DNA from: Candidatus Saccharimonadota bacterium
GTDB taxonomy: Archaea; Nanohalarchaeota; Nanosalinia; Nanosalinales; Nanosalinaceae
Reading direction: 5' to 3'
Assembly: GCF_029232205.1 (NCBI RefSeq)
Contig: NZ_CP107255.1
Span: 150,001 to 182,000 of the forward strand
Length of the DNA stretch: 32,000 nucleotides
This document shows, one piece after another, positions 11,271 through 29,112 of this stretch; within the stretch, counting starts at the first letter, position 1; the number at the start of each line of letters is the position of its first letter. A model generated the notes under the pieces. That model did no database searches. It was not told where the DNA came from and worked only from the letters and a program-made list of their open reading frames with translations. The translations under genes were made by a program, and so were the position numbers.

Positions 11271-11281
11271 TACAGTAGAGT

Positions 11282-13508: not shown

Positions 13509-13511
13509 ACC

Positions 13512-14207: not shown

Positions 14208-16462
14208 GAAAGAAGATAGTGTTCATCGGCCTGGTCTTGCTTTTCGCTGGAATATCGGCGGGAGAGGAGTTTACTGTAGCTAATTCTGGCAGCGGCGATA
14301 TTTCTGAAGGATCAAAGATTGTTGTCGAGTATAATGTTTCTGAGAGTTCGGATTACGAACTTTCGATCCAGGATTCTGATGATGACGTTGTTCTCTCCGG
14401 TGCACCAATGGTGCTGATCGATTCTTACAATGGTACGACAAATTCTACTACAGAGAGCACAAACGAAACCAGTACATCTACTAGCTCTGACGGTAATGAA
14501 ACTAATGCCACCACATCTTCTGATGACAGCTACTATGTCTATCAGTACAATTATACTATTCCTGATGACCCACAAGTAGGATTCTGGGAGGCCCAGGTAT
14601 TCGACGATTTCTCAGCTCAGAACTCTACAGAGTTCGCAGTAGAGCCCAAGAGGCTGAGAATTGTAGAGGCCCGTTCGAGGCCTGACTTCAAGAACTCGGA
14701 GGACGATGTCTCTTTCTACGCCGAGGTTACTAACGTGGATGAAGGCCTTGACTCGCTGGATGTTACTGTGGCCAATACTTCTATTGATTCTCGTTCTATG
14801 AATCTTCAGGAGTCAGGCCACTTTTACCAGACTTATACTTATGAGGCAGGCAGGTTTCCTGAGGGCACGTATAATTACGGTATAAATTTGAGAGGCGGCG
14901 ATGGGACAACGGATTCAAAATCCGATGAATTCTATGTTTACTCTTCCAATGTCGATGCTGATAGCGCTGATATCAGTGCCAGTATTTCAAGCCTCTGTGG
15001 GGTTGAAGTCCAGAGATTTAGAGCTCCGGGGGGAGGAGTTCTTTCTCTGAATGGTTCTGGCAGCTTTATGGTTGATTTCAATAATAATGGCAGTGCTAGA
15101 GCGAACTTATCCGCTGATCTAAATGTAACCTATCAGAATGAAACTCAGTGGCTTCCTGAGGATGGGAGAGAGGAGTTAGGGCCTTACATGAATCTTTCCT
15201 ATGATCCTATGAATGATAGTTTGCTGCCTGGAGAGTCCTCTGATACTTTTGTCAGGCAGTTCAATAAAACAGATGATCTTGGTTTCTACACAGGCCATCT
15301 AGATATGAATGCTACCTGCACGATTACTGACGGTGCTGCACAAAACCCGGTTGTTTATGGATACCAGGACTTTGATCTGTATGATTACACTAATTTCCGT
15401 GTTCTTGTTGCTGGTGGTGGCAGCGGTGGTAAAGGTAACCCTACAGGAGATCAGGCGGTTCCAAGAGATGCTAATCAGTCAGGTTCTGAATCAGATCAGA
15501 ACGTAGAGGGAGATAACGACAACCCTGGTCAGACGGAGGTAGAGGTTCCTGTACCAGAACCAGAACCTGTGCCGGAACCAGTGCCTGAGCCAGATCCAAC
15601 TGTTAACTTGAATGTTGAGGCCTGGAATGTGTCGGCTTCAACTGATAGAGGCCGTTTCGCCCGTATAAAGCTTAAAGTTGAGAATATTGGAGGTAGTCCG
15701 GCCTCTGATGTTGTGATACGTCCTGATACTGATCTTCTTCCAGGAGAATGGAGTGCAAGGCCTGCTAATATTGCGAATCTTTCTGTAAATGAAACTGTGA
15801 ATAGATCTGTGTTTATTCAGCCTTCTGAATCGGTTAATCCTGCTACTTACAGGCTGGTTATGAGAGCTAGGAACTCTGAGAGGCTTCTGGATATTGAGGA
15901 AACTCTTCTAACGGTTAATCAGGAGGTTTTCCGGTCTGAGATCAGGATAAGTGAGGCCCCACAGGTTGTCAGGATTGGAGCTAATCAGGGTAATCAGATT
16001 CCTCTTTTGATCCAGAATATTGGTGAAGGCCCTGTTAACAGCACTCAGGTACAGGTTCAGAATGTTGAGAGCTGTGGCTCTATAAGTGCGGAGGATGTAG
16101 GAGTCATCAATGTCAATGAAAGTAAGTCGCTTACTCTGAACGTCAATGCGTCTGACAACATTGAGGACTGTAATGCAACTGTTATTGTCTCGACAAACGA
16201 TGGTTCTTACTCTTTCTCCAACATGCAGATCCAGGTGGTGGCTGATCAGGGTATTGTGCCGCCAGAACTTAGATTTCCGGTCTTTGCGTCTGCATGGACA
16301 ATTCTGCTTGTAATCTACTCAATTGTAATGACAAGATACGAACTCAGCAGTTTGAGCGTCAGGATTCCATTTATACTTCTGATAGTTGGAGAAGCTGCAA
16401 TATTCATCTACATCTCGGCAGAGTACTACAGCCTGATACCGGCCTTCCTGCTACCATTCTAG
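14204..16462 (+). CDS. Large surface protein with two CARDB/NEW3-like domains and two C-terminal TM helices
   Basis: The TTG start overlaps the upstream TGA and yields a clean signal peptide (RKKIVFIGLVLLFAGISAG). Gly-rich and Pro-Glu linker. Two segments have the CARDB-like pattern (RIKLKVENIGGSPASDVVIRP and IPLLIQNIGEGPVNSTQVQVQN). The C-terminus has 2 TM helices. Confidence 0.65.
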   Translation: MRKKIVFIGLVLLFAGISAGEEFTVANSGSGDISEGSKIVVEYNVSESSDYELSIQDSDDDVVLSGAPMVLIDSYNGTTNSTTESTNETSTSTSSDGNETNATTSSDDSYYVYQYNYTIPDDPQVGFWEAQVFDDFSAQNSTEFAVEPKRLRIVEARSRPDFKNSEDDVSFYAEVTNVDEGLDSLDVTVANTSIDSRSMNLQESGHFYQTYTYEAGRFPEGTYNYGINLRGGDGTTDSKSDEFYVYSSNVDADSADISASISSLCGVEVQRFRAPGGGVLSLNGSGSFMVDFNNNGSARANLSADLNVTYQNETQWLPEDGREELGPYMNLSYDPMNDSLLPGESSDTFVRQFNKTDDLGFYTGHLDMNATCTITDGAAQNPVVYGYQDFDLYDYTNFRVLVAGGGSGGKGNPTGDQAVPRDANQSGSESDQNVEGDNDNPGQTEVEVPVPEPEPVPEPVPEPDPTVNLNVEAWNVSASTDRGRFARIKLKVENIGGSPASDVVIRPDTDLLPGEWSARPANIANLSVNETVNRSVFIQPSESVNPATYRLVMRARNSERLLDIEETLLTVNQEVFRSEIRISEAPQVVRIGANQGNQIPLLIQNIGEGPVNSTQVQVQNVESCGSISAEDVGVINVNESKSLTLNVNASDNIEDCNATVIVSTNDGSYSFSNMQIQVVADQGIVPPELRFPVFASAWTILLVIYSIVMTRYELSSLSVRIPFILLIVGEAAIFIYISAEYYSLIPAFLLPF
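15548..15598 (+). repeat. Pro-Glu/Pro-Val dipeptide repeat linker (PVPEPEPVPEPVPEPDP)
   Basis: Direct reading of codons: CCT GTA CCA GAA CCA GAA CCT GTG CCG GAA CCA GTG CCT GAG CCA GAT CCA. Confidence 0.7.
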
Positions 16463-18021
16463 AGGTCTTCAACCACGTGCTTACATAGAGCAATAACTTC
16501 ATCGGCTTCTACGTCGATCTTCTTGATATATTGCTCTCTGTTCATGGTCTCAAAGAAGTCTGCAAGTTGTTTCATATTGTCCGAGTCCTCAGGCAACTGT
16601 TCTGCCAGCTCCTGGTATGTAAGTTCGCGTTTTATACCTAGCTCGGTCTCGAGATATCCTTTCATCACGTGAGCTGTCTTTACCGCTACCTCTCTATCGC
16701 TTTCAAGCTTGGAGTATTTATCAAGAACCTCTTTCACATCAGAATCATTCATACTGCCGTCATCGTCACCTTGGCCTTTATCATCGCTGTTCAGACGCGC
16801 ACTAATCTTTTCACGGAAGTTCTGAATCTTCTCTCTAGGCCCTCCACCTTCGTCTTCTTCCTCTTCATCTTCGCTATCTCTTACAGCCCCCATCAACATC
16901 TGAAGATCTTCCTCGGCCTCTTCACGCATCTCCTCCTGGGACTTATCAGAATCATCTTCCTCCCCATCAGAACTTTCCCGGCCTTCGTCAACATCAATTT
17001 CCAGCTCTTCTGCAATCTTTCGCAGATCTTCTGTGCTGGACTGCTGAAGTTTCTCAGGATCAAGGCCTTCATCTTTCAGGCCTCCGATCAGGCCTTCTCT
17101 CTCCTTCTTATCGTCTCTGATTGACTTCAATTCGTCGATAGGGATATTTTCGAGTTCGTTATCTGGCACATCCATGTCAATGTCTTCAAGTATCTCTTTT
17201 TTCTTCTCAAACTCGGAAACTTCTTCATTTTCTCCCTTGCTATCTCCTTCCTCTTTTTCCTCTGTTTCTTCTTCACTTTCGGCCTCTTCACTCTCTTCTT
17301 CTGATTTATCTTCCTCTTTATCATTTTTGGAATCCTCTTTTTCTTCTTCGGAGGCCTCTTCATTGTTTTCTTTGTCGTCAGAGTCTTCCTCGTCTTCGCT
17401 ATCCTCTTCCTCGGTTTCTGGTTCTTGTTCGCCGTTCTCTGATTCTTCATCTATGTCGGAGTCCTTTTCTACTGTTTCCAGATCGGATTCCAGTTTTTCA
17501 ATGTCTTCGCTGGTTTTCTCTAGATCTTTCTCTACTTTTTTCTGTCTTATTTTCTTCTCAAGGAATTTTTTGGCAGTCTTTCGATCCTTGACTTTTTTCT
17601 CGGAGTTTAGAAGTGTCTGCATTACTTCTACGCTAGGATTGTTTTCTGTTACATATTTCTTGATGTCTGCAACTGTTCCACCAACTAGATCAAGGAGATC
17701 TTCCTGGCTGACGTCCTCTGCCTGGTCTCCATCAAATTCTGCGCTTTCAAGTTCCGTTACTTCGTTCATAAGGCCTTCAATATGTTCGAGTTCGTCCTCT
17801 GCCAGGCCCAATTTCTGCGATACCTTCTGTTTCTCCATCTGTCTGTCAATTATCTCGAGAACTTTCTCTCTGTTTTTTCCTGATTGTTCGGCCGATCTGA
17901 GAATTTCAAGGTCGTTGACAGGTACCTCTCTGCTTTCAATCTCTGATCTGAATTCTTCTACGCTGCTTGTTGTCAGTGATGAGATGTCGTTGATCTCGAG
18001 TTTTTCCAGTTCGTCGGCCAT
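16459..18021 (-). CDS. Hyper-acidic low-complexity protein, last gene of the MoxR operon
   Basis: Same strand as the VWA gene and 31 nt downstream of it. I prefer the ATG at 18021 (MADELEKLE) over the TTG at 18030. There are two 48-aa related segments near the N-terminus, a central Glu/Asp/Ser/Lys tract, and a C-terminal 80 aa resembling DUF4129-type domains seen in MoxR/DUF58 neighbourhoods (RELTYQELAEQLPEDSDNMKQLADFFETMNREQY). Confidence 0.6.
   Translation of the reverse strand: MADELEKLEINDISSLTTSSVEEFRSEIESREVPVNDLEILRSAEQSGKNREKVLEIIDRQMEKQKVSQKLGLAEDELEHIEGLMNEVTELESAEFDGDQAEDVSQEDLLDLVGGTVADIKKYVTENNPSVEVMQTLLNSEKKVKDRKTAKKFLEKKIRQKKVEKDLEKTSEDIEKLESDLETVEKDSDIDEESENGEQEPETEEEDSEDEEDSDDKENNEEASEEEKEDSKNDKEEDKSEEESEEAESEEETEEKEEGDSKGENEEVSEFEKKKEILEDIDMDVPDNELENIPIDELKSIRDDKKEREGLIGGLKDEGLDPEKLQQSSTEDLRKIAEELEIDVDEGRESSDGEEDDSDKSQEEMREEAEEDLQMLMGAVRDSEDEEEEDEGGGPREKIQNFREKISARLNSDDKGQGDDDGSMNDSDVKEVLDKYSKLESDREVAVKTAHVMKGYLETELGIKRELTYQELAEQLPEDSDNMKQLADFFETMNREQYIKKIDVEADEVIALCKHVVEDL
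17221..17463 (-). repeat. Low-complexity GAA/GAG/GAT-rich tract encoding an E/D/S/K run of about 80 aa
   Basis: The plus strand reads as TTC/CTC/TCT-rich repeats. It translates on the minus strand to DIDEESENGEQEPETEEEDSEDEEDSDDKENNEEASEEEKEDSKNDKEEDKSEEESEEAESEEETEEKEEG. Confidence 0.7.
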
Positions 18022-18052
18022 AGTATTCAACTAGTTTTTCTGAATTTAGTTG

Positions 18053-19000
18053 TTAAGGTAGGATTTCAAGACCGGTACTTTTCAGCACCCACTCCACTAT
18101 CAGAAGCAGGGCACCGAGGAAGATAAATACTGTAGTGAAGTCCTGAGCAGTTTCTCTATTGGTAATACCCACAATTTCAGGATCCAGAGCTGTATTGTTG
18201 GTCATGAAGACGCTTTCTCCGCCTGTGCTGTTTGAGAGTCTTTCAAGTTCGTCTTCGTTAAGGTTAGGGAAGTCAGCTCTTGAAGCATTGTTCCCGTTAA
18301 TTATCTGGTACTGATCTCCTTCTCTGTTCTTTCCAAGGCCTATAGTGTAGACTGAAATATTATTGTTGTTTGCAAATCGGATAGATTCATTGATTCCCGA
18401 TCCTACATTGTTTTCTCCATCGGTGATAAGTATTATTCTTCTTGGTGTTGTGGAGTTCTGAAGGATTGTGCCTGAGCTTATGACCGCGTCACCGATAGCT
18501 GTACCGGCCCTGTCGCCTATCTCCATCCTCCTGATATCTATCTTTTTCTCTGCAAGATTTCCAGAAGGCTCTGAAACCACGTTTACATCTCCAGAGTATG
18601 ATACGAGGCCTAGTGTTGTCTGATTTGTCATTTCATCTACGAGGCCTGTTGCGATATCTTTTGCTGCCTGGAATCTGGTCGGTTCTATGTCGGTTGTGAA
18701 CATTGATGAGGATGAGTCTACTGCGATGACGTAGCTTGCGTCTGCTACTGATGTTTCTCTGACAAGTTCTGGCCCTGATACTCCGATTATGAGGCATGTG
18801 ATTGCTGCGAGTTTTAGGAAGGCCAGTATATTGCTGGATCTGAGGAAGTTTCCTCCTGCTACTTTCTGAAGTGTTTCATAGTTCCCGAACTTCATGGCGC
18901 GGGCCTTCTTCATTTTTCGGGAGTAAATGGTTATTCCAAATAATAGGCCTATGATGAGTCCGAGGAGTGGTGCGTACTGGTATGAGAACTGTATTTCCAT
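18053..19000 (-). CDS. von Willebrand factor A domain membrane protein (BatA-like)
   Basis: N-terminal TMs (YAPLLGLIIGLLFGITIY and ILAFLKLAAITCLIIGV). MIDAS motif VIAVDSSSSM. Also TAIGDA, RRIILITDGENN, and a C-terminal TM (TVFIFLGALLLIVEWVL). Confidence 0.8.
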   Translation of the reverse strand: MEIQFSYQYAPLLGLIIGLLFGITIYSRKMKKARAMKFGNYETLQKVAGGNFLRSSNILAFLKLAAITCLIIGVSGPELVRETSVADASYVIAVDSSSSMFTTDIEPTRFQAAKDIATGLVDEMTNQTTLGLVSYSGDVNVVSEPSGNLAEKKIDIRRMEIGDRAGTAIGDAVISSGTILQNSTTPRRIILITDGENNVGSGINESIRFANNNNISVYTIGLGKNREGDQYQIINGNNASRADFPNLNEDELERLSNSTGGESVFMTNNTALDPEIVGITNRETAQDFTTVFIFLGALLLIVEWVLKSTGLEILP

Positions 19001-19002
19001 TT

Positions 19003-19890
19003 TTACCAGTCACTTCCGGTTTCATCCATGTACTCTGCGAAGGCTCCGGAGAACTGTTCTCGGGTGTCGACCTTGATCACTCCTGCTCCAGCACCTTCCA
19101 TTTTTGATTTCAGAGCTTTCTCTTCGTTTCGAGCTTTTTCGTTGTACTTCTCCCTTATCTTGTCAGTATTTACTGTCATCTGCTGGCTTCCGGCCGGTGA
19201 TTTGAATCTCATGTTTCCGCCCTCCGGCAGTTTGTAGTCTCTTAGATCGCGGGTCATGATGCACATTACGTGCCTGAACTTTTCTGACGCAATTTTCATT
19301 TTTGCCTTCCAATCTCCCTTGGCCTCGATAAAGTCTGATACAATGAATAGGGCGGTGTTGGCCTTGATCTGTCCAATAGTATCATTGAGGGCCTCTTCCA
19401 GGTTGAAGGTTCCGCCGTGGTTACTGAATTTGGTGACTTCGAGAAGTACTTTCTGGTACTGATCCTGGCCTCCATCAGGATTGATTGTTATCTGATCGTC
19501 ACCGTACATTCCGAATCCCGCGTTAATTCCGGCGTCGATAGAAGCGTATGTTAGAGCAGCTGCGACAACTGCAGCGTACTCTGACTTCATCTTGTCCGCG
19601 GTTCCAAACATCATGGAGTCGGAGACATCGAGAATAATGTAGACGTCCATATCTTTCTCCTCCTCATACTCTTTAACGAACAATGCGTCTGTACTTGCAG
19701 AGTTCTTCCAGTCGATTCTGGATGCGTCGTCTGTTACCTGGTACTCTCTGAGGTCGGAGAATTCGATACCTGAGGCCTGAAACTGTTCTTTGTATTTTAA
19801 CGCGAATCTGAAGAGTTCGGCAACACGTTTAACTTCTGTATCAACTCTTGCAGTTAAATCGTCGGAGCCGAAGAAGTCCTCTTCCTTCAT
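19003..19890 (-). CDS. DUF58 family protein (MoxR-associated)
   Basis: Signature DLREYQVTDDASRIDWKNSASTDALFVKEYEEEKDMDVYIILDVSDSMMFG. The gene abuts moxR with no gap, and an SD-like GGTGAGGT lies just upstream. Confidence 0.85.
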   Translation of the reverse strand: MKEEDFFGSDDLTARVDTEVKRVAELFRFALKYKEQFQASGIEFSDLREYQVTDDASRIDWKNSASTDALFVKEYEEEKDMDVYIILDVSDSMMFGTADKMKSEYAAVVAAALTYASIDAGINAGFGMYGDDQITINPDGGQDQYQKVLLEVTKFSNHGGTFNLEEALNDTIGQIKANTALFIVSDFIEAKGDWKAKMKIASEKFRHVMCIMTRDLRDYKLPEGGNMRFKSPAGSQQMTVNTDKIREKYNEKARNEEKALKSKMEGAGAGVIKVDTREQFSGAFAEYMDETGSDW

Positions 19891-20901
19891 CTACCTCACC
19901 GGCACTGTATTTACAATATCATCGATTATGTCCTTAATTTCAATTCCCTGGGCCTCTCCCTCGTAGTTAAGAAGGATTCTGTGGATGAAAACTGGCTCGA
20001 TAATGGCTCTGACATCTTCAGGTGTTACATAGTGTCTCTTGTTGTATAGTGCGTGAGCTCTTGCTGCCAATGCAAGGTTAATGCTTGCTCTCGGTGTGCA
20101 ACCCCATTCAATGTACTCTCCGTATTCCAGGCCGTAGTTTTCAGGGTTTCTGGATGTATCCACGAGGTCCACAATATATTCCTTGATCTCCTGACTGACA
20201 GTTACCTGTTTTGCGAACTCCTGTATTTCGAGCACGTCTTCGTCGTCTACAACTACTCCAACATCGAAGTCCTCGTCGTCCATAATGTTTGCGTTCATGT
20301 CGATAATCTTCTGTTCGTTCTTCTTCTTAGGGTAGTCAAGGTAGATCTTGAACAGGAAACGATCGATCTGGGCCTCCGGCAATGGGTATGTTCCACCCTG
20401 CTCTGTAGGATTCTGTGTGGCCAGTGTGAAGAATGGCTCTGGCAAATGGAAGGTCTGGTCTCCAATCGATACTTTGTGCTCCTGCATGGCCTCAAGCATC
20501 GCACTCTGAACCTTTGGAGGAGCACGGTTAATCTCATCTGCAAGAATAAAGTTTGCAAAGATAGGCCCTTTCTCAACGTAGAAACCTTTATCCTCGTTGT
20601 AAGCCTCTACACCGACAATATCTGAAGGAAGCTTGTCGGGAGTGAACTGGATGCGGTGGAAATCAGTGTTTCCAACTACGCGGCCCAGTTGTTCAACTAG
20701 AAGAGATTTTCCAAGGCCTGGTACTCCCTCAAGAAGCACGTTACCTCCGGCTACAATCGTCAATAGTATCTTGTTAATAACATCTTCCTGGCCAATATAT
20801 CCTTTCTGAATTTCCTTCTCCATCGTGCGGATCATCTCTCCAAACTCATCCGCAGTCTCACTCATCTCTTCCTCAGAATAATCGGCGTACTTACTGACCA
20901 T
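19891..20901 (-). CDS. MoxR-family AAA+ ATPase
   Basis: Walker A LLEGVPGLGKS. Walker B region FANFILADEINRAPPKVQSAMLEAMQEHKV. Also FFTLATQNPTEQGGTYPLPEAQIDRF and a typical length of 336 aa. Confidence 0.9.
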   Translation of the reverse strand: MVSKYADYSEEEMSETADEFGEMIRTMEKEIQKGYIGQEDVINKILLTIVAGGNVLLEGVPGLGKSLLVEQLGRVVGNTDFHRIQFTPDKLPSDIVGVEAYNEDKGFYVEKGPIFANFILADEINRAPPKVQSAMLEAMQEHKVSIGDQTFHLPEPFFTLATQNPTEQGGTYPLPEAQIDRFLFKIYLDYPKKKNEQKIIDMNANIMDDEDFDVGVVVDDEDVLEIQEFAKQVTVSQEIKEYIVDLVDTSRNPENYGLEYGEYIEWGCTPRASINLALAARAHALYNKRHYVTPEDVRAIIEPVFIHRILLNYEGEAQGIEIKDIIDDIVNTVPVR

Positions 20902-21017: not shown

Positions 21018-22151
21018 CTATCTCTGAGCGCTCTGGTCTGATGTCACATAGAATGTGATCTGACCTTGTGAAACTCCTCCCTGTGGAACTCCCTGTGGAA
21101 CTTCAATTGCTGTGTCCACGGTTAGTCCTTCTCCTGGGAGAAGCATTCTCTCAGGGTTGGCGGAGTCTGCGTTCAGAAGGAACTGTGATCGTTCTCCAGT
21201 CTCAGTTCCTGCTGTCAGGTCATCTACGTCTCCTGCCTGGACATTGTAACGGGTTCTAATTGTCCCTGCGTCAGAAATTGCTGACTTACCTGTATCACAA
21301 CCGGTAAGTACATCGTACTCTCTGTAGCTTCCGTCAGACATGTTGAGTCTGATACCAGTCTCTCCGTCTCCTGACTTTGTTGCTACACCGTAGCTTCCTG
21401 TTGTTGATACGATGTTATACTCTCTCCAGTCTCCTGGCCCGCTGTCTGTGAAGTCAACGGTTCCGAATGAGTCTGGGGAGTGAGCTGTGTTTCCTACTCG
21501 GATGATACTTGGACCACTTGAACCATCGCAGATGTCGTCAGATGCTACTGGGATTACCCAGAAGTACCATTCGCTTCCTGCTCTGAATCTTCCAACGTAT
21601 ACATCGTCAACACCTGAATCTACTTCTGTAGGTGCTGCTTCGATGTAAGAGGGAATATCTCCTCTTTCACTACTCCATGAGTTTGCATACTCATGTCTAT
21701 TAACGTAGTGATATGTTGATGTGTTTCCTCTTACTGAGGATTTCGAAGAAGAGTTTGCAGGTTTGATCTGTAGGAAGTTTCCTGCGTCATATTCTCCTGG
21801 AAGTCCTGTTCCGAAAGGATTGTCGGAAGGTGCCGTAGCTGACGTCCAAACTCGATCAATGTACTCTGAACCAATATTTTCCAGTTCAATTGATCCAAAA
21901 CTGTTTCCTCCGTTGTCTCCTGTTAGAGTTTGAGTTCCTACGTCAAGACTGTTATAGTCTAGAGACTCTGGCTTGACATCGATCGCTGTCTTACTGGCTA
22001 CAGATACTGTGATATTAGAGCTTTCTGAAGTGTTAACGTCGCCATCACTTGTGTTCTGAGTGTTATCTCCTTCAAGAGATTGTGCTGTCGCTGAGAAAGC
22101 CATTCCGAATGCTAGAAGTGCTACTGCTAGAATTGTCAATTTTTTATTCAT
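21018..22151 (-). CDS. Secreted protein without a membrane anchor; candidate abundant surface or matrix subunit
   Basis: Signal peptide MNKKLTILAVALLAFGMAFSATAQS. Gly/Ser/Thr/Asp-rich beta-type sequence (IDVKPESLDYNSLDVGTQ...IELENIGSEYI). Full SD GGAGGTGA sits 4 nt before the ATG, and an oligo-T terminator follows. Codon and k-mer usage is atypical (see findings). Confidence 0.7.
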   Translation of the reverse strand: MNKKLTILAVALLAFGMAFSATAQSLEGDNTQNTSDGDVNTSESSNITVSVASKTAIDVKPESLDYNSLDVGTQTLTGDNGGNSFGSIELENIGSEYIDRVWTSATAPSDNPFGTGLPGEYDAGNFLQIKPANSSSKSSVRGNTSTYHYVNRHEYANSWSSERGDIPSYIEAAPTEVDSGVDDVYVGRFRAGSEWYFWVIPVASDDICDGSSGPSIIRVGNTAHSPDSFGTVDFTDSGPGDWREYNIVSTTGSYGVATKSGDGETGIRLNMSDGSYREYDVLTGCDTGKSAISDAGTIRTRYNVQAGDVDDLTAGTETGERSQFLLNADSANPERMLLPGEGLTVDTAIEVPQGVPQGGVSQGQITFYVTSDQSAQR

Positions 22152-22155
22152 ATTG

Positions 22156-22163
22156 TCACCTCC
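22156..22163 (-). promoter_or_regulatory. Shine-Dalgarno site GGAGGTGA for the 377-aa secreted-protein gene
   Basis: The plus strand TCACCTCC at 22156-22163 is GGAGGTGA on the minus strand. The spacer CAAT precedes the ATG at 22151. This is the longest SD-like match I found in the window. Confidence 0.6.
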
Positions 22164-22228
22164 TTTGATTTGTAAAGGGTTTTGAGTTGAACCAGCCCTA
22201 TAGGGTTGGGATGTGTCGTTTCTAGGAC

Positions 22229-22242
22229 TGACTGATCAGTCA
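22229..22242. repeat. Perfect 14-nt palindrome TGACTGATCAGTCA in the 331-nt divergent intergenic region
   Basis: Read directly from the sequence. It could be a dimeric regulator site or a 5-bp hairpin in the leader of the 21018-22151 gene. Confidence 0.5.
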
Positions 22243-22442
22243 TCCCTAACTTTGCTGGTAAAGAAATACTACTTTCTGAGGAGTTCTGCTTCTTATTGCT
22301 GTAGTCTACTATATTCATGTTTGGGTACACTGTGGTTCTATCTGTTTCAAAGCTAAACTCCCCCTTCTGAGCACAATTATCGTGGGCTTGTATAAAAAGG
22401 TTCAGTATGTAACAGGGCCTGTTAAAGGCCTTCTGTGCCGCC

Positions 22443-22459
22443 ATATTAATCTATTAAAG
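22443..22459 (+). promoter_or_regulatory. TATA-like box for the 22483-27773 gene run
   Basis: ATATTAATCTATTAAAG, with TATTAAAG centred about 27 nt upstream of the ATG at 22483. No SD is present. Two AGGGCCTG copies flank it (22414-22421 and 22458-22465). Confidence 0.35.
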
Positions 22460-22482
22460 GGCCTGAGACCAAATAAATTCTT

Positions 22483-23586
22483 ATGAAGAAGCTTGGATTA
22501 GCAACTCTCGTACTTTTTCTGGTTTCGACTGCTTCAGCGGCCTCAGTAGGCACGAACCCTGGTTTCCAGGATTTTGGAGAGATCAGAAAAGGAGAGACAA
22601 GAGTTGCTAATGTCTATGTTACAACCACGGGATATGATAGTCCTTTTGCAGTAAGGCCTGTGGCCGGAGAGTCTCTTTCAAGTACTTACTTAGACTCCCA
22701 AGATAGTCCGTTCTCTCCTGCGGAATATTCTGGAGAGGATATAACTGAATGGATAAGATTTGATCAAAATGCGTTTAGAGTGACTCCAGCAAATACAACA
22801 GAGTATATTATTGGCGATGGAGTCACTGTAAATTATGCTGGTAGAATAAAGTTCTATATTGAGGTACCTCGAGATGCTGAGCCTGGTTACCATGCAGGCA
22901 TGATCAATGTCAATCCTCAGTTGACTAATTCGGGAACAGGTTTTGGAGCAAGTACTAGAGGCCAGTCAATGTATACTTTTGTTTTCAGGGTTCCTGGAAA
23001 TGTGGAGAAAAGTATTGATGTGGTTGATGCTCGCGGTATCAGGACTGGAGAAGATAGAGCAAGGATCGATATAAGAGTTGCTAACAGAGGAACGGTCACT
23101 ACTAGCATTAGAGGTTCTAACATCGACGTATATAATAGGCAGACTATGTCAAAAGTCGATGATCTGCCTATAGGATATCATAAATTAGCTCCAGGACAGA
23201 GTAAAATTATATCCAGAAATTTAAGATCAAATTCTATAGAGGAAGGCTCTTATCAGGTTAATGGCAGCATCGAGTACATCGGAGGCAGCTCCTTTGTCAG
23301 CCAGCAGACTTTCTCGCTAGCTGATACTATTCAGGATAATCCTCCAGAGGCCTCGAGTTTCGGGCCTTCAGACACAGAAGGTGATTCAGGTAGTCCTATG
23401 TGGTTGCTGGGTCTTTTCGTTGTGATGGTGTCTGTTATCATGTATGCAATGGAGTTCGAGTTGTTCTCCATTATACTTGTTGGCGGAGGCCTTGGAATTG
23501 TTGGTTTCATCGTGTTTACAGGTATTCCGAACTGGACTTTGCTGATACTTTTAACAAGTACGCTGGGAATACTGATGTATGGATAA
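22483..23586 (+). CDS. Signal-peptide protein with two beta-sandwich-like domains and about three C-terminal TM helices
   Basis: Signal peptide MKKLGLATLVLFLVSTASAAS. GFQDFGEIRKGETRVANVYVTT has an ASH/PapD-like strand pattern. RIDIRVANRGTVTTSIRG is CARDB-like. The hydrophobic C-terminus is WLLGLFVVMVSVIMYAMEFELFSIILVGGGLGIVGFIVFTGIPNWTLLILLTSTLGILMY. Confidence 0.65.
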   Translation: MKKLGLATLVLFLVSTASAASVGTNPGFQDFGEIRKGETRVANVYVTTTGYDSPFAVRPVAGESLSSTYLDSQDSPFSPAEYSGEDITEWIRFDQNAFRVTPANTTEYIIGDGVTVNYAGRIKFYIEVPRDAEPGYHAGMINVNPQLTNSGTGFGASTRGQSMYTFVFRVPGNVEKSIDVVDARGIRTGEDRARIDIRVANRGTVTTSIRGSNIDVYNRQTMSKVDDLPIGYHKLAPGQSKIISRNLRSNSIEEGSYQVNGSIEYIGGSSFVSQQTFSLADTIQDNPPEASSFGPSDTEGDSGSPMWLLGLFVVMVSVIMYAMEFELFSIILVGGGLGIVGFIVFTGIPNWTLLILLTSTLGILMYG

Positions 23587-24073
23587 CGTAGAGGACATGA
23601 TGGATTCGTCAAATCTTCTTGTTGGAGCAGCTATTTTTGTTGGAGTTCTTGCAATTGTTCTTTTGACAGCCCCTTATGCTGCAGATAACGCTCTTCTAAC
23701 AGAAAGAAAGTTTACTATACCGATTAACGGTTCGGTTGAAAATATGACTGGTAATGCAAGCTTTGGTGTATCTGCAGGTAGCGGTGGAGCACTTGACTTT
23801 GGAAGAATTGCTCTTGATGCATCTAACTCTACAAGAAATATTACCGTAGGTACTCCGGGCACAAACTACGTCAGACTGGATGCAGAAGGCAACATCACGG
23901 AGCACCTTGAATACAGCAAATACAATTACAATGTGTCCAGTATTCCTGTCAAGTTTATTGGAGAGGAAGAAGGCCAGTTTACAGGAAACATGACTGTAAC
24001 AGTTCAGATACCTAAAGAGGATGGAGGGGAAGCATGGCTAGGAACAAAGTACTGGTTCTACTCACTGCAGTAA
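23579..24073 (+). CDS. N-terminally anchored small beta-sandwich-like protein
   Basis: TM LLVGAAIFVGVLAIVLLTAPYA, then GALDFGRIALDASNSTRNITV and GQFTGNMTVTVQIP. The start overlaps the upstream stop. Alternative in-frame ATGs lie at 23597 and 23600. Confidence 0.55.
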   Translation: MDNVEDMMDSSNLLVGAAIFVGVLAIVLLTAPYAADNALLTERKFTIPINGSVENMTGNASFGVSAGSGGALDFGRIALDASNSTRNITVGTPGTNYVRLDAEGNITEHLEYSKYNYNVSSIPVKFIGEEEGQFTGNMTVTVQIPKEDGGEAWLGTKYWFYSLQ

Positions 24074-24810
24074 TCCTGTCACTTTCAACGGCCTCAGCAC
24101 TCAGCCTACAGGTAACAATCGACTCTATAACTACAGCCGATGTTAAGAATGTGCAGTTCCAGGAGAACTCATCTATCAGCAATGTTAATGCTTCAATAAT
24201 GAACACAGGCTCCATAGGCTGCCAGTACAGATTAAAGCTATCCTACACCTATGCAAATGATACTTACTCATCATACTCAGATAGAAAGGCCCTATGGCCG
24301 GGAGCCTCTGAACTTGCAGAACTGAAGGCGCCTGTATTCAACTATACAGGCCCTGTTAACTCCAGTCTTTACGTAATGTACTGCGATCAAATTAGAGGGC
24401 TTGAAAACTTCACTTTCACGTCCACAGAGAACATCACAGTTAACTCCAGTGTCGAAAGCACTACAAGGTCTGTAACTGAGGAAGAGGCCTCTCTTGAGCT
24501 CGGTGTTGAGAGTGGAGAGCTTGTTCCTGTTGATACACCGCCTTACTGGAAGGCTTCGTACGCTGAGATAGAGAATGGCTCGGCTACTGTAGAGTATGAG
24601 GCCCCGATCTTTGATGAACGGCAGAACCTGACCTATCTGGTTAAATCTGGCGATGAGATTCTTGGAACTACAGAGGTTCAGCTTGAGGCCCGGAAAACGT
24701 TTGTAGATAGGATTATGAGTGTGGACAGGAAGTGGCTTTTCGGCCTGATCGGTTTCCTTGCTCTGATCAACGTCTTTCTGCTTTACAGAACTCTAACAAA
24801 CAGGAATTAA
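24034..24810 (+). CDS. Signal-peptide protein with a C-terminal TM anchor
   Basis: Signal peptide MARNKVLVLLTAVILSLSTASA. SD-like GGAGGGG lies 4 nt before the ATG. Many N-x-S/T sequons. C-terminal TM WLFGLIGFLALINVFLLY. It overlaps the previous gene by 40 nt in another frame. Confidence 0.6.
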   Translation: MARNKVLVLLTAVILSLSTASALSLQVTIDSITTADVKNVQFQENSSISNVNASIMNTGSIGCQYRLKLSYTYANDTYSSYSDRKALWPGASELAELKAPVFNYTGPVNSSLYVMYCDQIRGLENFTFTSTENITVNSSVESTTRSVTEEEASLELGVESGELVPVDTPPYWKASYAEIENGSATVEYEAPIFDERQNLTYLVKSGDEILGTTEVQLEARKTFVDRIMSVDRKWLFGLIGFLALINVFLLYRTLTNRN

Positions 24811-24845
24811 AGATTTAAAGTAGTCCGCGAACAAATACCATCTAG

Positions 24846-27773
24846 ATGTCTCCCGAAAAGAGATTTACAAAAATTATTCTGGCAGGCCTTCTCACTCTAG
24901 CTTTTGTCAGTGCTACAGCTGCTGAAATCAGCACGGCAGGAGATCAGGAAATAGTATGGAAGAACTCAAACATTCAACCACAGTTAACTGCAACATGTTC
25001 TCTATCTAATGCAACCAGTTCAGAAATTGAGGTAGGCACGTCAGGAGACAATGTTTTTACTGAAAGTTCGGGCCAGATAGATGTTGAATCTTCTGAGCTT
25101 CAAGGGGTCTGGAGCTCGACAAAGTACGTAAACTATACTTGTTCTAACGCAAATGATACTGTTTCAGAGGCCCGCAATCTCAGCTTTGTAAGTTTCTCGC
25201 TAGTGTCTAAGTCGAATGAGAGAAGTGATTATTCTGATTTCAATGGTATAAGTTTCGTAGGCCAGCTGATGAAGGATGAGAAAGGAAGTCTTGGTAACAG
25301 AAGAGGAATCTTTCTCTCCTTTAATGATATAAGTCAGATTGGAGAGGATGAGCAGCTGGAGGGCCTTAAGCAGAGCAGTTACTCTTTCGGAACCAATGGA
25401 AAGCTTGTTAACTCCGATCAGGAGCCAAAAGTTGATTCCAATAATCAATATGTCAAGGTATTTCCTCGTGTCAGGTCATATATTGAATCTGATCAGAGTT
25501 TTAAGGTAAGATTTGATGGTTCTGGTGTTTTTTCAGGCCTTGAGAAGAGAGTACCTGTCGATAGTTTCACTCCCTTTGTTCATGCCTGGAGTTCAAGTGT
25601 TGAGAGAGATCCAGGCCGCAGAATGGGTTTTGACCAGGTCAGGCAGGGAGCTTACGTCTACGAGCTCTTTATGGATTATGAGCCAAGTGATAACTTCCCT
25701 GAGACCGAAATTGATGATGATAACTTTGTACTTGATGTAGAAAAGAAGCAGTCTGACTGGGATTCTGGTTATGAGACTGTAAAATCCGATCTTGAGGTTT
25801 TAACTACTTCTGAGCCTGAATCGGGTTCTGCAAATTACAAGGTAGAGATCCCTCAGGTTGCGGATACAGAGCTTGAAGGCCTTGAAAACGATGATGATCC
25901 TTACAAGTTTGTACTCAAGTACCGTTACGTTGAGGACGGTAGTACTTACTCTTTCAAGGTAGATGAGATGCTGGTAGATAAAACCGATAATCCTTCTAGA
26001 TTTTCAGGCCAGATACTGAATTCTGCTGGAAACGGCGTTCAGACTGATATGACTCTCAGTCCTTCAAATAATGATAATAGATACGTGATTTCTTCAGGGT
26101 CCAATGGCCAGTTCTCCAAGGATCTCTCAACAGATCTCAGTACCTCTTTCGATATTGGTATGGAGTTCTCGGATTCGGGCAGCAGGGTTTCAAGTGTTGA
26201 TCTTTCTGGTGTGCGGTTGGAGGATGCAAATCTTGGTTCTCAGGATATTTCGGCTATTAACTTTGATTACTGGCAGAATCCTCAGGATGTTGCAGGCCTT
26301 GATATCAGTGGTTTAAAGCCTGTTAACATGATGGCTGTCAGGTTTGGTTATGATATTGGAAGTGTTGATTCGATAAGTATGGACTTTGATTCTTCTGAGG
26401 TTGCTCCGAAGAATTTGAAGGTCTACGAATGTGATGCCTGGAATTTCTGGGGCACGAGATGTGAAAGCAATTGGGACAAGGTCGCGGACAACAGCAACAG
26501 CAGTGTTATTTCTTATCCTGAGGTCTGGGCCAATATAGATAATGCAAATCTCTACGGTACCTCCGGTGGAGAGGAGATTTTGAGAAATGCCTATGTTATT
26601 GGAAAGAGCGCGAAGATTACTCTTCAGAACTCGATCAGTGTCGAAAGTTCAAGTGTAAAGTACAACGGCGAGTTCCAGGCCTCTGGAGTTCTTGTCAGCG
26701 ATACAGGTGACAGAGTTTCGGATGCTGACGTTACTGTTTCTCTTGTTAAAGAAGGTGAGACTGTCGAGTCCTGGTCTACCAATTCTGACAGTACCGGTTC
26801 CTTCGAGATTTCGGAGACTGTTGATGATGCTGATGCAGGGAATTATCAGTTGAAGATTGAGGCCTCGAAAAGTCCGTATCAGAGCTTTGAAATGATGAGC
26901 GAGAAAACCATTGAGGTATACTACGAGACAGGTATCAGACTGGAGGCCCCTACCTCGAAAGAAGTTGTTCAGGGCAATAAGACCGAGATTGATATTACTG
27001 TTTCGAATACAGGCCAGCAGCCGGTTGAGAATGTTGATCTTTCGGTCAGCGGTGTGAAAAGTATTTACTACAGCTTTGATTCCAATGTTAACAGCCTTGA
27101 TTCTGGCGAGAGCAGAAGTTTAGGCCTCACGCTTGATCTTCCGGCTGATTACTGTAATCTTCCTTGTGGAAGTCCTCCGCAGCTTGATATCTCTGTTTCA
27201 GGTAGTTCAAATGAGCAGGATGTCTCCGACAGTATTCTGACTTCGATTGTTCTCGTTGAGGGAGATACAGAAAATACTGATTCTTCAGAGACTGAGGATC
27301 AGGATACTTCAACCTCTGATTCCCAGAGTTCGACTGAGGATGAATCAAGTCCTGAGAGCTCTACCTCTCCAATCTCTAATATGCAGGATATGACTGGAGA
27401 CTTTGTCCAGAAGCAGGGCGAATTGAATATTGCTCTTGGATTAATCTTCATCTTCACCATGATGCTGGCACTCTCAGTCAAGAAAAAGAAGGGTTCTGGA
27501 GATGACAGGAGAAGAGGTGGAAGTGGTAGAGGCGGTGGAAGGCCTCCGGTTCAGAGACCTCCTATTAATTCCTCTCAACAGGATCAGGAAGAAAATGAGG
27601 GTGATGAGTTAGAAGAATCTGAAGAAGATTCCGAAGACGAGGGAGAGGCCGAAGAGGATGAGTCAACTGCTGAAGATAGTGATGAGGAGGAAGAAGGTTT
27701 TGAGTGTAGTGTGTGTGGTGAAAGTTTTGAGTCGGAGTCTGGCCGTGATCTTCACGAGCAGGCCGTACATTAG
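24846..27773 (+). CDS. Large surface protein with a single-pass anchor and a cytoplasmic RGG-acidic-C2H2 zinc-finger tail
   Basis: Signal peptide KIILAGLLTLAFVSATAAEIS and about 870 aa outside. These include a carboxypeptidase-regulatory-like segment (DADVTVSLVKEGETVESWSTNSDSTGSFEI) and a CARDB/NEW3-like segment (KTEIDITVSNTGQQPVENVDLSVSG). An S/T/D/E linker follows, then the TM LNIALGLIFIFTMMLALSV. The tail is KKKKGSGDDRRRGGSGRGGGRPP, then an acidic run, then FECSVCGESFESESGRDLHEQAVH. Confidence 0.7.
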   Translation: MSPEKRFTKIILAGLLTLAFVSATAAEISTAGDQEIVWKNSNIQPQLTATCSLSNATSSEIEVGTSGDNVFTESSGQIDVESSELQGVWSSTKYVNYTCSNANDTVSEARNLSFVSFSLVSKSNERSDYSDFNGISFVGQLMKDEKGSLGNRRGIFLSFNDISQIGEDEQLEGLKQSSYSFGTNGKLVNSDQEPKVDSNNQYVKVFPRVRSYIESDQSFKVRFDGSGVFSGLEKRVPVDSFTPFVHAWSSSVERDPGRRMGFDQVRQGAYVYELFMDYEPSDNFPETEIDDDNFVLDVEKKQSDWDSGYETVKSDLEVLTTSEPESGSANYKVEIPQVADTELEGLENDDDPYKFVLKYRYVEDGSTYSFKVDEMLVDKTDNPSRFSGQILNSAGNGVQTDMTLSPSNNDNRYVISSGSNGQFSKDLSTDLSTSFDIGMEFSDSGSRVSSVDLSGVRLEDANLGSQDISAINFDYWQNPQDVAGLDISGLKPVNMMAVRFGYDIGSVDSISMDFDSSEVAPKNLKVYECDAWNFWGTRCESNWDKVADNSNSSVISYPEVWANIDNANLYGTSGGEEILRNAYVIGKSAKITLQNSISVESSSVKYNGEFQASGVLVSDTGDRVSDADVTVSLVKEGETVESWSTNSDSTGSFEISETVDDADAGNYQLKIEASKSPYQSFEMMSEKTIEVYYETGIRLEAPTSKEVVQGNKTEIDITVSNTGQQPVENVDLSVSGVKSIYYSFDSNVNSLDSGESRSLGLTLDLPADYCNLPCGSPPQLDISVSGSSNEQDVSDSILTSIVLVEGDTENTDSSETEDQDTSTSDSQSSTEDESSPESSTSPISNMQDMTGDFVQKQGELNIALGLIFIFTMMLALSVKKKKGSGDDRRRGGSGRGGGRPPVQRPPINSSQQDQEENEGDELEESEEDSEDEGEAEEDESTAEDSDEEEEGFECSVCGESFESESGRDLHEQAVH

Positions 27774-27799: not shown

Positions 27800-28579
27800 T
27801 TAATTTAGGTTTCCTGATAGGTTGCCAAGTTTTCTCTTCAGTTTGGCGAATCTGGGCCTCTGGTATTCGTGGCCTCCTACTGATGCTGCGAGTTCTTTTA
27901 TTTCGAGTGCGGCTTCTGCGAGTGGTTCGTGTTTGACTAGTGGTTCGCTTTCGAAGAGGCTTTTTCTCATTGTGTGGTCGTGTGGTATCTGGTGGAGGAT
28001 GTGTGATTCTGTCATCATTTCTATTTCTCTGTCGATGAGTTCGATTTCTGGGTCTCCGGATACTTTGTTGACTACGGTGCCAAGTACTGGTTGTCTGAGT
28101 TCTTTGGCTTTTTCGATTATCTGTGCTGCGTTTACGCCTGATGTCTGTGTTGGCATTGTGACTATCATTAGTTCGTCGACTGACATCATGATGTTTTCTA
28201 CTGTTGAGTTCAGGCCTGGAGGGCAGTCTACAAGTACATAGTCTGATTGTTCTGCTGCTGTTTCCAGTACCTCTCTCAGGTTTGAGATGTCGGGTTCGAC
28301 GAAGTCTATTTCGTTGGATGATACGATTCCTTTGATGCCTGTTGGGTGTCTGAATATTGCTGATTCTGGTTCGGCATCTCCCTGTAGAACTTCCTGTATT
28401 TTGACAGGGTGGTCGTATCGGCCCAAGTATACTCCCAGGTTAGAAGCTGCGAAGTCAGCGTCGACTATAGTTACTTCGTTGCCGAAGTCGCTTAGGGATA
28501 CTCCCAGGTTTACTGTTAGGCTGGTCTTTCCTACTCCACCTTTTCCTGAAATAAGGCCTATTATCCTGCCTTTAGACAT
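27800..28579 (-). CDS. minD: MinD/ParA-family P-loop ATPase (archaeal MinD-like)
   Basis: Deviant Walker A IGLISGKGGVGKTSLTVNLG. Also IVDADFAASNL and YVLVDCPPGL. The basic C-terminal tail is RPRFAKLKRKLGNLSGNL. Confidence 0.85.
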   Translation of the reverse strand: MSKGRIIGLISGKGGVGKTSLTVNLGVSLSDFGNEVTIVDADFAASNLGVYLGRYDHPVKIQEVLQGDAEPESAIFRHPTGIKGIVSSNEIDFVEPDISNLREVLETAAEQSDYVLVDCPPGLNSTVENIMMSVDELMIVTMPTQTSGVNAAQIIEKAKELRQPVLGTVVNKVSGDPEIELIDREIEMMTESHILHQIPHDHTMRKSLFESEPLVKHEPLAEAALEIKELAASVGGHEYQRPRFAKLKRKLGNLSGNLN

Positions 28580-28692: not shown

Positions 28693-29112
28693 ATGAATAA
28701 GTTTTGGGTTATTACGGGGGGAGTTCTGGTTGTTGCTCTGGCGTTTTTAGCGCTTGAGATGCCAGGAAACAATACAATAAACTTTACTGATCTGGAGACG
28801 GAGTGCAGATATGATAGAAGCACTGCTTTTGATATAAGTTTGAAGCCAGGCAACAGACTGTCCTTTGAAGGACATTTCCCTGTCAATAATACTGAGTCAG
28901 ATCTTTCTTACCGTTACAGGAGAAGCGGAGATACTATCAGACTGAATATTGTCGCTGATGAAGATGACAACGTTCCTGAGAGCTTCTACAACAACTGTCT
29001 TGCTACAGTTGTCTACGATGCTCAGACATCAAGTATTCCAGAAGGCCGTTACGATGTGATTCTGGTTCACGACGGTGAGGAAGTTGAACATCAGGTAATT
29101 GGAATAAAGTAA
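28693..29112 (+). CDS. Small N-terminally anchored extracytoplasmic protein
   Basis: SD-like GGAG lies 6 nt upstream of the ATG. TM FWVITGGVLVVALAFLAL, then a 110-aa domain with 2 Cys. No family recognised. Confidence 0.5.
   Translation: MNKFWVITGGVLVVALAFLALEMPGNNTINFTDLETECRYDRSTAFDISLKPGNRLSFEGHFPVNNTESDLSYRYRRSGDTIRLNIVADEDDNVPESFYNNCLATVVYDAQTSSIPEGRYDVILVHDGEEVEHQVIGIK

Follow-up and report, generated by a model that had tools for sequence, protein, structure and literature searches.

We analyzed a stretch of 32,000 nucleotides (contig NZ_CP107255.1, positions 150,001 to 182,000; hereafter the window) from Ca. Nanohalovita haloferacivicina, in which five genes for envelope proteins, designated S377, A367, B164, C258, and D975 after the lengths of their products in amino acids (aa), adjoin a gene encoding a MinD-type ATPase. 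These genes form a six-gene envelope module, ATPase included, which is conserved over at least two named phyla of the tiny symbiotic archaea known as DPANN. S377 may well be the main coat protein of the cell, of the S-layer type, with the four anchored proteins as its membrane platform and MinD positioning or regulating the assembly. A preliminary description of the locus had drawn the boundary after five genes, with the MinD-like ATPase as a flank, and had proposed a host-attachment or envelope-scaffold system.

An A367 alignment was compared with one genome per GTDB species, which yielded 104 relatives, and 80 loci were kept. The loci were mapped with six-frame open reading frames (ORFs) and iterative hidden Markov models for every window protein; counts are over 87 related loci. 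Many contigs are truncated, and adjacency counts use loci with room. The loci belong to Nanohaloarchaeota, approximately 20 metagenome-assembled genomes (MAGs) of Aenigmatarchaeota, one Altiarchaeales MAG, 'Nanobdellati', and many unclassified archaea. The recurrent order consisted of one to four tandem copies of S377 next to A367, usually divergent and upstream, followed by A367, B164, C258, MinD, and D975. A367 and B164 were adjacent in 75 of 84 loci, and the order A367-B164-C258 was found in 65 of 67, an arrangement that is far beyond chance. Contigs with A367 homologues at 32 to 48% identity retained the same neighbor genes. In one Aenigmatarchaeota contig (locus L056), the six genes formed a single tight operon with gaps of 8 to 30 bp. 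The idea of a system had been made to depend on synteny in related genomes; synteny is kept in at least two named DPANN phyla, indicating that the genes are co-inherited.

MinD-family ORFs (n = 69 in the loci) also had preferred places. Thirty-one were co-directional between C258 and D975, 15 were inverted directly after D975, which is the arrangement of nanohaloarchaea and of the window, and three more followed D975. MinD was within 6 kb in 57 of the 87 loci despite the many truncated contigs. Because of this recurrent place in the conserved order, the MinD-like gene is a core member of the module rather than a flank, and the five-gene boundary is not retained. The ATPase adds a nucleotide-dependent part on the cytoplasmic side. 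MinD identity among nanohaloarchaea was 65 to 82%, far above that of the extracellular members, of which S377 was generally the best conserved (34 to 58% identity between nanohaloarchaeal lineages). The S377 gene had been described as divergent; this holds for its orientation with respect to A367 in the window, but the gene is co-directional with the neighboring MoxR, DUF58, and VWA genes and belongs to one operon with the other members in L056. A small protein, p139, was a conserved MinD neighbor in nanohaloarchaea only (16 loci), and its membership in the module is uncertain.

Secreted S377 carries a Sec-type signal peptide, no anchor, and two conserved cysteines (208 and 285). A word-indexed search gave 94 homologues, extending to Aenigmatarchaeota. 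The AlphaFold2 (AF2) model, obtained with 52 sequences, is a compact all-beta protein with a predicted local distance difference test score (pLDDT) of 86.7 and a predicted template modeling score (pTM) of 0.83. Foldseek returned no match to this model in PDB or BFVD at E ≤ 0.001 and none to the WxL chain deposited with 9i25, and the family profile gave one chance-level match in PDB. Weak NEW3 matches were present in 10 of the 52 family members; because of these matches and of its motifs, the sequence suggests a sandwich of NEW3/CARDB type into which a large domain is inserted. A conserved alternating-hydrophobic segment, V-x-V-x-V...T-x-I-D-V-x-P, directly follows the signal peptide. In the AF2 monomer this segment is of low confidence and partly unstructured, with no strand assigned.

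Transcript values were taken from the whole of Table S1 of Reva et al. (2023; PMC10266531), covering approximately 1,050 coding sequences (CDS) of the related, cultivated Ca. Nanohalococcus occultus SVXNc. The values were 212 for SVXNc_0243 (vWFA), 414 for SVXNc_0244 (DUF58), 1,382 for SVXNc_0245 (MoxR), 55,024, 662, 886, and 448 for the hypothetical genes SVXNc_0246, SVXNc_0247, SVXNc_0248, and SVXNc_0249, respectively, and 1,830 for SVXNc_0250 (FleN-type ATPase). Phosphoenolpyruvate synthase follows at SVXNc_0254; in the window, too, it follows. SVXNc_0246 was taken as the S377 orthologue because the gene adjoining MoxR was S377 in every nanohaloarchaeal locus inspected (frameshifted in L015) and because S377, A367, B164, C258, MinD is the commonest order. 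This gene ranks second of the approximately 1,050 CDS, ahead of EF-1alpha, which is third (41,878), and the two genes annotated as S-layer have values of 3,458 and 747 (PMC10266531).

The anchored proteins share a beta-sandwich build, as had been proposed from ASH/PapD-like and CARDB/NEW3 strand patterns; the AF2 model and Foldseek matches of A367 and the Pfam matches of D975 orthologues corroborate this. The A367 model (24-sequence alignment, pLDDT 79.3) comprises a signal peptide and two beta-sandwiches (residues ~21-170 and 178-279), which a linker joins to three TM helices at 306-366 (TM, transmembrane; two helices by hydropathy). The motifs D-A-E-P-G-[YW]-H and N-x-G-x-V-T are invariant. 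The loop at 148-158, which contains an invariant G153, is conserved and is the sole low-confidence stretch inside domain 1. The top Foldseek match was the WxL-interacting protein (WxLIP) of the Gram-positive Enterococcus faecium (9i25_C, E 3.3e-10, template modeling scores of 0.38 for the query and 0.50 for the target), and further matches were to ASH/PapD-like folds (DraB, 8.8e-7) and RbmA. HMMER comparison of A367 with 1.84 billion representatives gave 1311 matches at E ≤ 1e-3, including 151 at ≤ 1e-30; homologues from non-halophiles are approximately 315 to 325 aa long, with a single C-terminal TM segment. The A367 family profile had chance-level matches only in PDB, none of them to WxLIP. 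Because the Pfam models WxLIP_PGBD and WxLIP_HBD stayed below threshold (E 0.009-0.07, in one to three members of 24 and of 63 scanned), we regard the likeness to WxLIP, moderate in the models, as an architectural resemblance and do not claim homology. One loop of WxLIP is flexible and turns into a strand by which the partner's sandwich is completed (PMC10599100); by analogy, loop 148-158 of A367 may be its equivalent.

B164 consists of an N-terminal TM anchor (13-31) and one small beta-rich ectodomain with the motifs LNFG, GNIS, and GNYTG. Class III signals typically contain a basic K/R-G/A cleavage motif. On reading the sequence, no such motif was found at the B164 N-terminus (MDNVEDMMDSSNLLVGAAIF...), a segment that is not conserved. 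C258 has a signal peptide, an ectodomain with a conserved cysteine pair (63 and 117), and a C-terminal TM segment (233-251). In hhalign comparisons, A367 domain 2 aligned with C258 at 93.6% over 100 columns, A367 with B164 at 86%, and A367 with D975 around 660-750 at 74%; by these profile comparisons, a related NEW3/CARDB-type sandwich module is common to A367, B164, C258, and D975.

D975 is composed of a signal peptide, a multi-beta-sandwich ectodomain, a TM segment at 860-878, and a cytoplasmic tail of 97 aa. The sandwich region near 613-770 is transthyretin-like/CarboxypepD_reg plus NEW3; the NEW3, CarboxypepD_reg, and CARDB matches are weak in the window protein, and in non-halophile orthologues both CarboxypepD_reg (to 3e-15) and NPCBM_assoc (NEW3) rise above their Pfam cut-offs. 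The Pfam scan revealed no enzymatic domain in these orthologues. The tail is polybasic right after the TM segment, and its motifs are conserved: in nanohaloarchaea the polybasic part is followed by a Gly/Arg-rich part, an acidic part, and a terminal C2H2 zinc finger, and in Aenigmatarchaeota by an amphipathic basic motif, E-R-x-x-I-K-N-L-L-x-D-I-K-x-E-I. The zinc finger (C-x2-C-x12-H-x4-H, residues 952/954-975, window 27705-27773) is at the extreme cytoplasmic C-terminus, is kept in nanohaloarchaeal orthologues, and is absent from Aenigmatarchaeota.

The MinD-like protein has a deviant Walker A motif, SGKGGVGKTS, at residues 11-20. It matched TIGR01969 (minD_arch) with an E value of 1e-54 over residues 5-243, at 185 bits just under the cut-off of 201.75, and exceeded the Pfam cut-offs for AAA_31, ParA, and CbiA. 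On this evidence the protein is assigned to the archaeal MinD subfamily of deviant Walker A ATPases. Its C-terminal tail is basic (RFAKLKRKLGNL) and may act as a helix that targets the membrane. Neither a MinC- nor a MinE-like gene was found in the window or in the loci, in which the conserved MinD neighbors were C258 and D975. Makarova has remarked that FleN/MinD genes are often in operons with unrelated membrane proteins (PMC4858521). The module can be compared with machines based on MinD, ParA, or FleN (TadZ in Tad pili, BcsQ with cellulose synthase, FlhG in flagella, Haloferax MinD4 with archaella; arCOG00589): they have in common a deviant Walker A ATPase, here of the archaeal MinD subfamily, in an operon with membrane proteins, and the basic C-terminal tail as a possible membrane-targeting helix. 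In contrast, the module has no MinC or MinE, secretion ATPase, TadC/FlaJ, or synthase partner, and its cargo would be single-pass beta-sandwich proteins.

A second MinD paralogue, approximately 41 to 43% identical to the in-operon copy, was present upstream of A367 in four Aenigmatarchaeota loci (L071, L076, L078, and L082). It was paired with an anchored C258/D975-like protein of approximately 430 aa in the same minus-strand run as S377, and a giant D975-like protein of 1,720 to 1,740 aa was encoded downstream on the opposite strand. Because of this second pair, MinD and an anchored sandwich protein suggest a duplicable sub-module.

Nanohaloarchaea have been shown to possess an S-layer by electron microscopy (EM), transmission EM, or cryo-electron tomography (PMC11291902, PMC11803251, PMC7443923). 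No protein assignment for it was found in the literature. Observed here were the genes present, their conservation, the folds and topology of the products, and the transcript level of the positional equivalent of S377; from these we infer protein-protein contacts, the identity of the coat, and a role for MinD as follows. S377 would be exported by Sec, probably glycosylated, and produced in very large amounts, as the main structural protein of an outer coat; this coat would most likely be the layer of S-layer type that nanohaloarchaea display. Having no anchor, it would be held at the membrane by the platform of A367, B164, C258, and D975, with their common NEW3/CARDB-like module. A367, built like WxLIP, would probably grip its partner through beta-strand or edge-to-edge sandwich contacts, using the conserved flexible loop. 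On the cytoplasmic side, MinD would bind the membrane when loaded with ATP and act on the conserved basic tail of D975, thereby positioning or licensing platform assembly. In nanohaloarchaea, the adjacent MoxR-DUF58-VWA genes might supply a chaperone-like maturation step. The envelope-scaffold part of the preliminary description fits this evidence.

Two known types of surface system are close enough for comparison. Archaeal S-layers in which a separate protein provides the membrane anchor (SlaA/SlaB of Sulfolobales; the MSTP/DUF1608 tiles known from Methanosarcina and predicted in DPANN) likewise combine an abundant secreted glycoprotein, for which S377 is the candidate here, with anchored partners, and are rich in beta-sandwiches. 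S377 is much smaller than their subunits and matches SlaA/B, csg, and DUF1608 neither in sequence nor in fold, and the module has four anchors and a MinD ATPase instead of one stalk protein. The WxL/Csc clusters of Lactobacillales and Bacillales (WxLIP, consisting of DUF916, DUF3324, and a TM segment; a small and a large WxL protein; a small LPXTG protein) are also four-gene surface clusters, with a similar pattern of sizes: approximately 350 aa with two sandwiches and a TM segment, a small protein, a protein of approximately 250 aa, and a large multi-domain protein. The non-halophile A367 homologues have the WxLIP layout of signal peptide, two sandwiches, and one TM segment, and A367 domain 1 and WxLIP each have a flexible loop, possibly an equivalent one. 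In contrast to these clusters, the module has no WxL domain (no Pfam match at E ≤ 1 in B164, C258, or D975) and no LPXTG motif (none on reading the five translations), its partners have TM anchors of their own, and the MinD ATPase and the separate, highly expressed secreted protein have no counterpart there. The organism is an archaeon and has no peptidoglycan.

Several observations weigh against S377 as an S-layer-type coat protein. To our knowledge, four different anchors and an ATPase are more machinery than any S-layer needs. The mature size of S377, approximately 35 kDa, is small for an archaeal S-layer protein. S377 had no match to the known archaeal S-layer families (DUF1608/MSTP, csg, SlaA/SlaB) in Pfam, NCBIfam, or the Foldseek search of PDB (E ≤ 0.001). 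In a preprint, S-layer proteins resembling MSTP/DUF1608 are predicted for Aenigmatarchaeota and Altiarchaeota; MSTP/DUF1608 homology of S377 was sought by family scans, the PDB profile search, and Foldseek, and was not found. Because such proteins are predicted there and S377 shows no such similarity, S377 may be something other than an S-layer protein in these lineages. The similarity of A367 to WxLIP is moderate (template modeling scores of 0.38/0.50, Pfam WxLIP models below threshold). The orthology of SVXNc_0246 and S377 is very probable and is deduced from gene order only. Finally, SVXNc_0101, annotated as a hypothetical protein, has a value of 376,629, which is 7-fold above SVXNc_0246 and above all annotated non-coding RNAs (PMC10266531); this CDS may stand for an RNA annotated in error or for a further major protein.

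The module might, more tentatively, represent a distinct class of surface assembly, known so far only from DPANN. S377, as a coat or fiber subunit for whose fold Foldseek gave no solved counterpart in PDB, would be captured and polymerized on a WxLIP-like, strand-complementing platform, and a dedicated MinD would drive the placement or activity of this platform through the single-pass tail. It is likewise conceivable, with similar reserve, that such an ATPase-controlled envelope builder is unrelated to type IV pili, chaperone-usher systems, and known S-layer systems; no T2SSE or T2SSF gene was found in the module.

An S-layer-type coat is preferred over a surface fiber or pilus, a rather unlikely reading that uses the same parts list. 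S377 would then polymerize by donor-strand complementation through its N-terminal V-x-V-x-V strand, as do TasA, archaeal bundling pili, Sulfolobus threads, and chaperone-usher pili; A367 would act as a two-domain chaperone or base tethered to the membrane, D975, C258, and B164 would provide the anchor or tip, and MinD would set the site or number of fibers. The low-confidence N-terminal segment, which is not a strand in the monomer model, is in keeping with this, as are the tandem S377 paralogues, which resemble major and minor subunits, the match of the A367 ectodomain to PapD-like chaperones (DraB) and ASH folds, and the insertion of a WxLIP strand into a partner sandwich (PMC10599100). FleN/MinD ATPases accompany archaeal filament systems (PMC4858521), and S377 had a weak Foldseek match to the TasA fiber (E 0.16 over 99 columns). 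However, S377 had no significant structure or sequence match to TasA, archaeal bundling pilus, thread, or usher-pilus subunits, its fold matched no pilin (FimA, E 0.39), and its model is compact. Neither a SipW-type peptidase nor an usher is encoded in the cluster: Peptidase_M73 and the SipW signal had no match, and the module contains no signal peptidase gene. Transcript levels above that of EF-1alpha also fit a layer covering the cell better than appendages.

A host-contact apparatus, in which the anchored proteins and S377 would form an adhesion complex on the haloarchaeal host and MinD would localize it at the contact site, is less probable than a fiber. In its favor are the obligate ectosymbiotic life of the organism, the Ig-like or beta-sandwich build, common in adhesins, of all extracellular members, the role in host binding proposed in Firmicutes for WxL clusters, the nearest architectural analogue, and the possibility that a MinD-type ATPase places the apparatus locally or at a pole. 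However, the module is kept in halophiles and non-halophiles among the DPANN, whose hosts and habitats are unrelated, and it has no lectin, LamG, or PKD-type domain, strain-specific LamG/PKD proteins being encoded elsewhere in these genomes. S377 is generally the best conserved rather than the most variable extracellular member and no rapidly evolving adhesin specific to a strain, and the very high constitutive transcription of its positional equivalent, at the level of a housekeeping structural gene, suggests a bulk structural role. The host-attachment part of the preliminary description is thus not upheld.

Least probable is a system centered on MoxR and VWA, that is, a 'putative secretion system' or Bat-like envelope-stress module with the sandwich genes as substrates or accessories, as for arCOG01314-type loci. 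The MoxR, DUF58, and VWA genes that had been described on one flank, opposite the MinD-like ATPase, were all identified by family matches (Table 1). The VWA protein, with its VWA domain between TM helices, also matched the BatA N-terminal region (3.8e-4) and VWA_BatA_Lepto (2.7e-16), both below cut-off. MoxR AAA_3, DUF58, and a VWA membrane protein of BatA type share a single operon, which corresponds to a Bat-type module. These genes adjoin and are co-directional with S377, and in one Aenigmatarchaeota contig (L009) S377 paralogues lie directly upstream of MoxR-DUF58-VWA. Makarova et al. (2015) have linked MoxR and vWA with Ig-like 'S-layer' membrane proteins as a 'putative novel secretion system' in arCOG01314-type loci (PMC5898192). 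The genes of Bat and arCOG01314 modules (MoxR with AAA_3, DUF58, and BatA-type VWA protein) do adjoin Ig-like envelope proteins here, but their link with the six-gene module is facultative, which weakens this reading. In every nanohaloarchaeal locus reaching far enough upstream, MoxR-DUF58-VWA and p523 adjoined the module; the set also did so in L009, L063, L066, and L079, and VWA/p523 in L039, L050, L051, and L065. MoxR was within ±10 kb in 20 of 87 loci, compared with MinD within 6 kb in 57 of 87. Because MoxR was present in only 20 of the 87 loci, the set is a recurrent accessory neighbor and not an obligate part. Pfam scans of window proteins revealed no arCOG01314-like flavodoxin-domain membrane protein, arCOG profiles not having been searched, and nothing reached the thresholds for BatC/D/E; a single BatD match, in one S377 homologue, was weak (E = 1). 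A second MoxR-DUF58-vWA set is located elsewhere in SVXNc, away from the module (PMC10266531).

Table 1. Positions of the module, its neighbors, and the intergenic region in the window.
Feature	Position	Strand	Basis and remarks
S377	21018-22151	-	ORF, 377 aa
A367	22483-23586	+	ORF, 367 aa
B164	23579-24073	+	ORF, 164 aa
C258	24034-24810	+	ORF, 258 aa
D975	24846-27773	+	ORF, 975 aa
MinD-like ATPase	27800-28579	-	Pfam and TIGR01969 match; core module member
p139, small N-terminally anchored protein with Cys pair	28693-29112	+	ORF and hydropathy
Divergent intergenic region S377/A367	22152-22482		331 bp
MoxR-DUF58-VWA and p523 accessory set	16459-20901	-	Pfam and NCBIfam; downstream of and co-directional with S377
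MoxR AAA+ ATPase, 336 aa	19891-20901	-	AAA_3 2e-56
DUF58	19003-19890	-	DUF58 2.5e-40
BatA-type VWA protein	18053-19000	-	VWA_2 1.2e-16
p523, very acidic 523-aa protein with conserved C-terminal domain	16459-18030	-	ORF

The five ORFs have exactly the coordinates and sizes given in the preliminary description. The four plus-strand genes are, as stated there, tightly packed: A367 and B164 overlap by 8 nucleotides, B164 and C258 overlap by 40 nucleotides, and a gap of 35 nucleotides separates C258 from D975. A signal peptide or N-terminal anchor had been ascribed to all five products, and hydropathy revealed an N-terminal hydrophobic segment in each. C-terminal TM anchors, also noted earlier, were found in A367, C258, and D975, B164 having an N-terminal anchor only; hydropathy indicated no TM anchor in S377, which had been described as secreted. 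The claim of many N-x-S/T sequons held for B164 (8 observed versus 1.9 ± 1.1 expected) and C258 (10 versus 3.3 ± 1.6), but not for S377 (6 versus 4.3), A367 (3 versus 2.8), and D975 (7 versus 10.9). Pfam, NCBIfam, PADLOC, and PHROG scans of the five proteins gave nothing above the curated thresholds. Because the family scans were null, the five genes are not assignable to known enzyme, solute-binding, defense, or phage families, and such identities were excluded. The earlier statement that the proteins bear no recognizable signature of an enzyme, a class III signal, PGF-CTERM, or a known S-layer family also agrees with the scans.

On reading the sequence, a TATA-like A/T-rich element (TATAAAAA/TTTTTATA, approximately 22392-22400), readable in both directions, was noted in the intergenic region between S377 and A367, where it may serve as a bidirectional promoter. 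A Shine-Dalgarno-like GGAGGTG, also found by reading, is located a few nucleotides 5' of the S377 start. The putative S377 leader and the intergenic region showed neither unusual RNA structure (z = -0.9) nor an Rfam match, and the idea of a structured RNA or riboswitch was dropped.

A lone S377 homologue (35% identity) was found on a haloarchaeal contig of Natronococcus sp. A-GB1 (L011 8001-9125; JARUKW010000018.1), with a phage-type integrase, a primase-polymerase-like gene, and a TnpB-like gene as neighbors. It could be a transfer between the symbiont and host lineages, or a mis-binned or mobile element. A viral or plasmid origin of S377, considered in view of this homologue, was negative by Foldseek against BFVD, phage tblastn, and plasmid tblastn. 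Two loci labeled as bacterial, L013 (JBLGBK010000007.1, 'Colwellia polaris' MAG) and L029 (CAYLKS010000092.1, 'uncultured bacterium'), carry the archaeal module with DPANN-type synteny and are probably mis-binned or mislabeled contigs in public MAGs. S377 in L015 (8493-9658) and D975 in L016 (12329-15243) are each split into two overlapping ORFs, probably owing to frameshifts or assembly errors of the MAGs.

Among the neighbors, p523 contains 180 Asp and Glu among its 523 residues, no TM segment, and no Pfam match; its C-terminal ~120 aa are conserved and its gene adjoins the BatA-type VWA gene also in Aenigmatarchaeota (L009, L039, L051, L065). MoxR beside the module is approximately 926 aa long in some nanohaloarchaea (L092/L093 19061-20759; L012, 932 aa; L015, 925 aa), in which it contains an intein that includes a homing-endonuclease domain of the LAGLIDADG type (Pfam Intein_splicing, LAGLIDADG_3). 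There is no intein in the MoxR of the window. A second tight, co-directional five-gene envelope cluster is located at 10872-16462 on the plus strand. Its products are of 132 aa (N-terminal TM), 142 aa (2 TM), 601 aa (signal peptide), 231 aa (signal and C-terminal TM), and 752 aa, the last with a signal, two C-terminal TM segments, a NEW3 domain, and a HYDIN/VesB-like Ig domain that exceeds its Pfam cut-off. The gene for the 752-aa protein adjoins p523 in other nanohaloarchaea too. Together with the module studied here, this cluster makes up an envelope island of approximately 18 kb.

No prior description of the six-gene module was found in the literature; the nearest published ideas are Makarova's 'putative secretion system' of MoxR, vWA, and Ig-like proteins and the remark on FleN/MinD operons. 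Much of archaeal diversity belongs to the DPANN, which depend for their living on surface contact with hosts, and their envelope-building proteins are mostly uncharacterized. The module provides a concrete candidate for a major coat protein together with its anchoring and assembly partners. Its families would be useful as markers for the annotation of DPANN genomes and are good targets for structural work because they have no Pfam model and the S377 fold had no match in the libraries searched. A MinD-type ATPase tied to envelope proteins would, if true, be a new job for this family in archaea. The module probably builds or anchors the main surface coat of many of these tiny symbiotic archaea.

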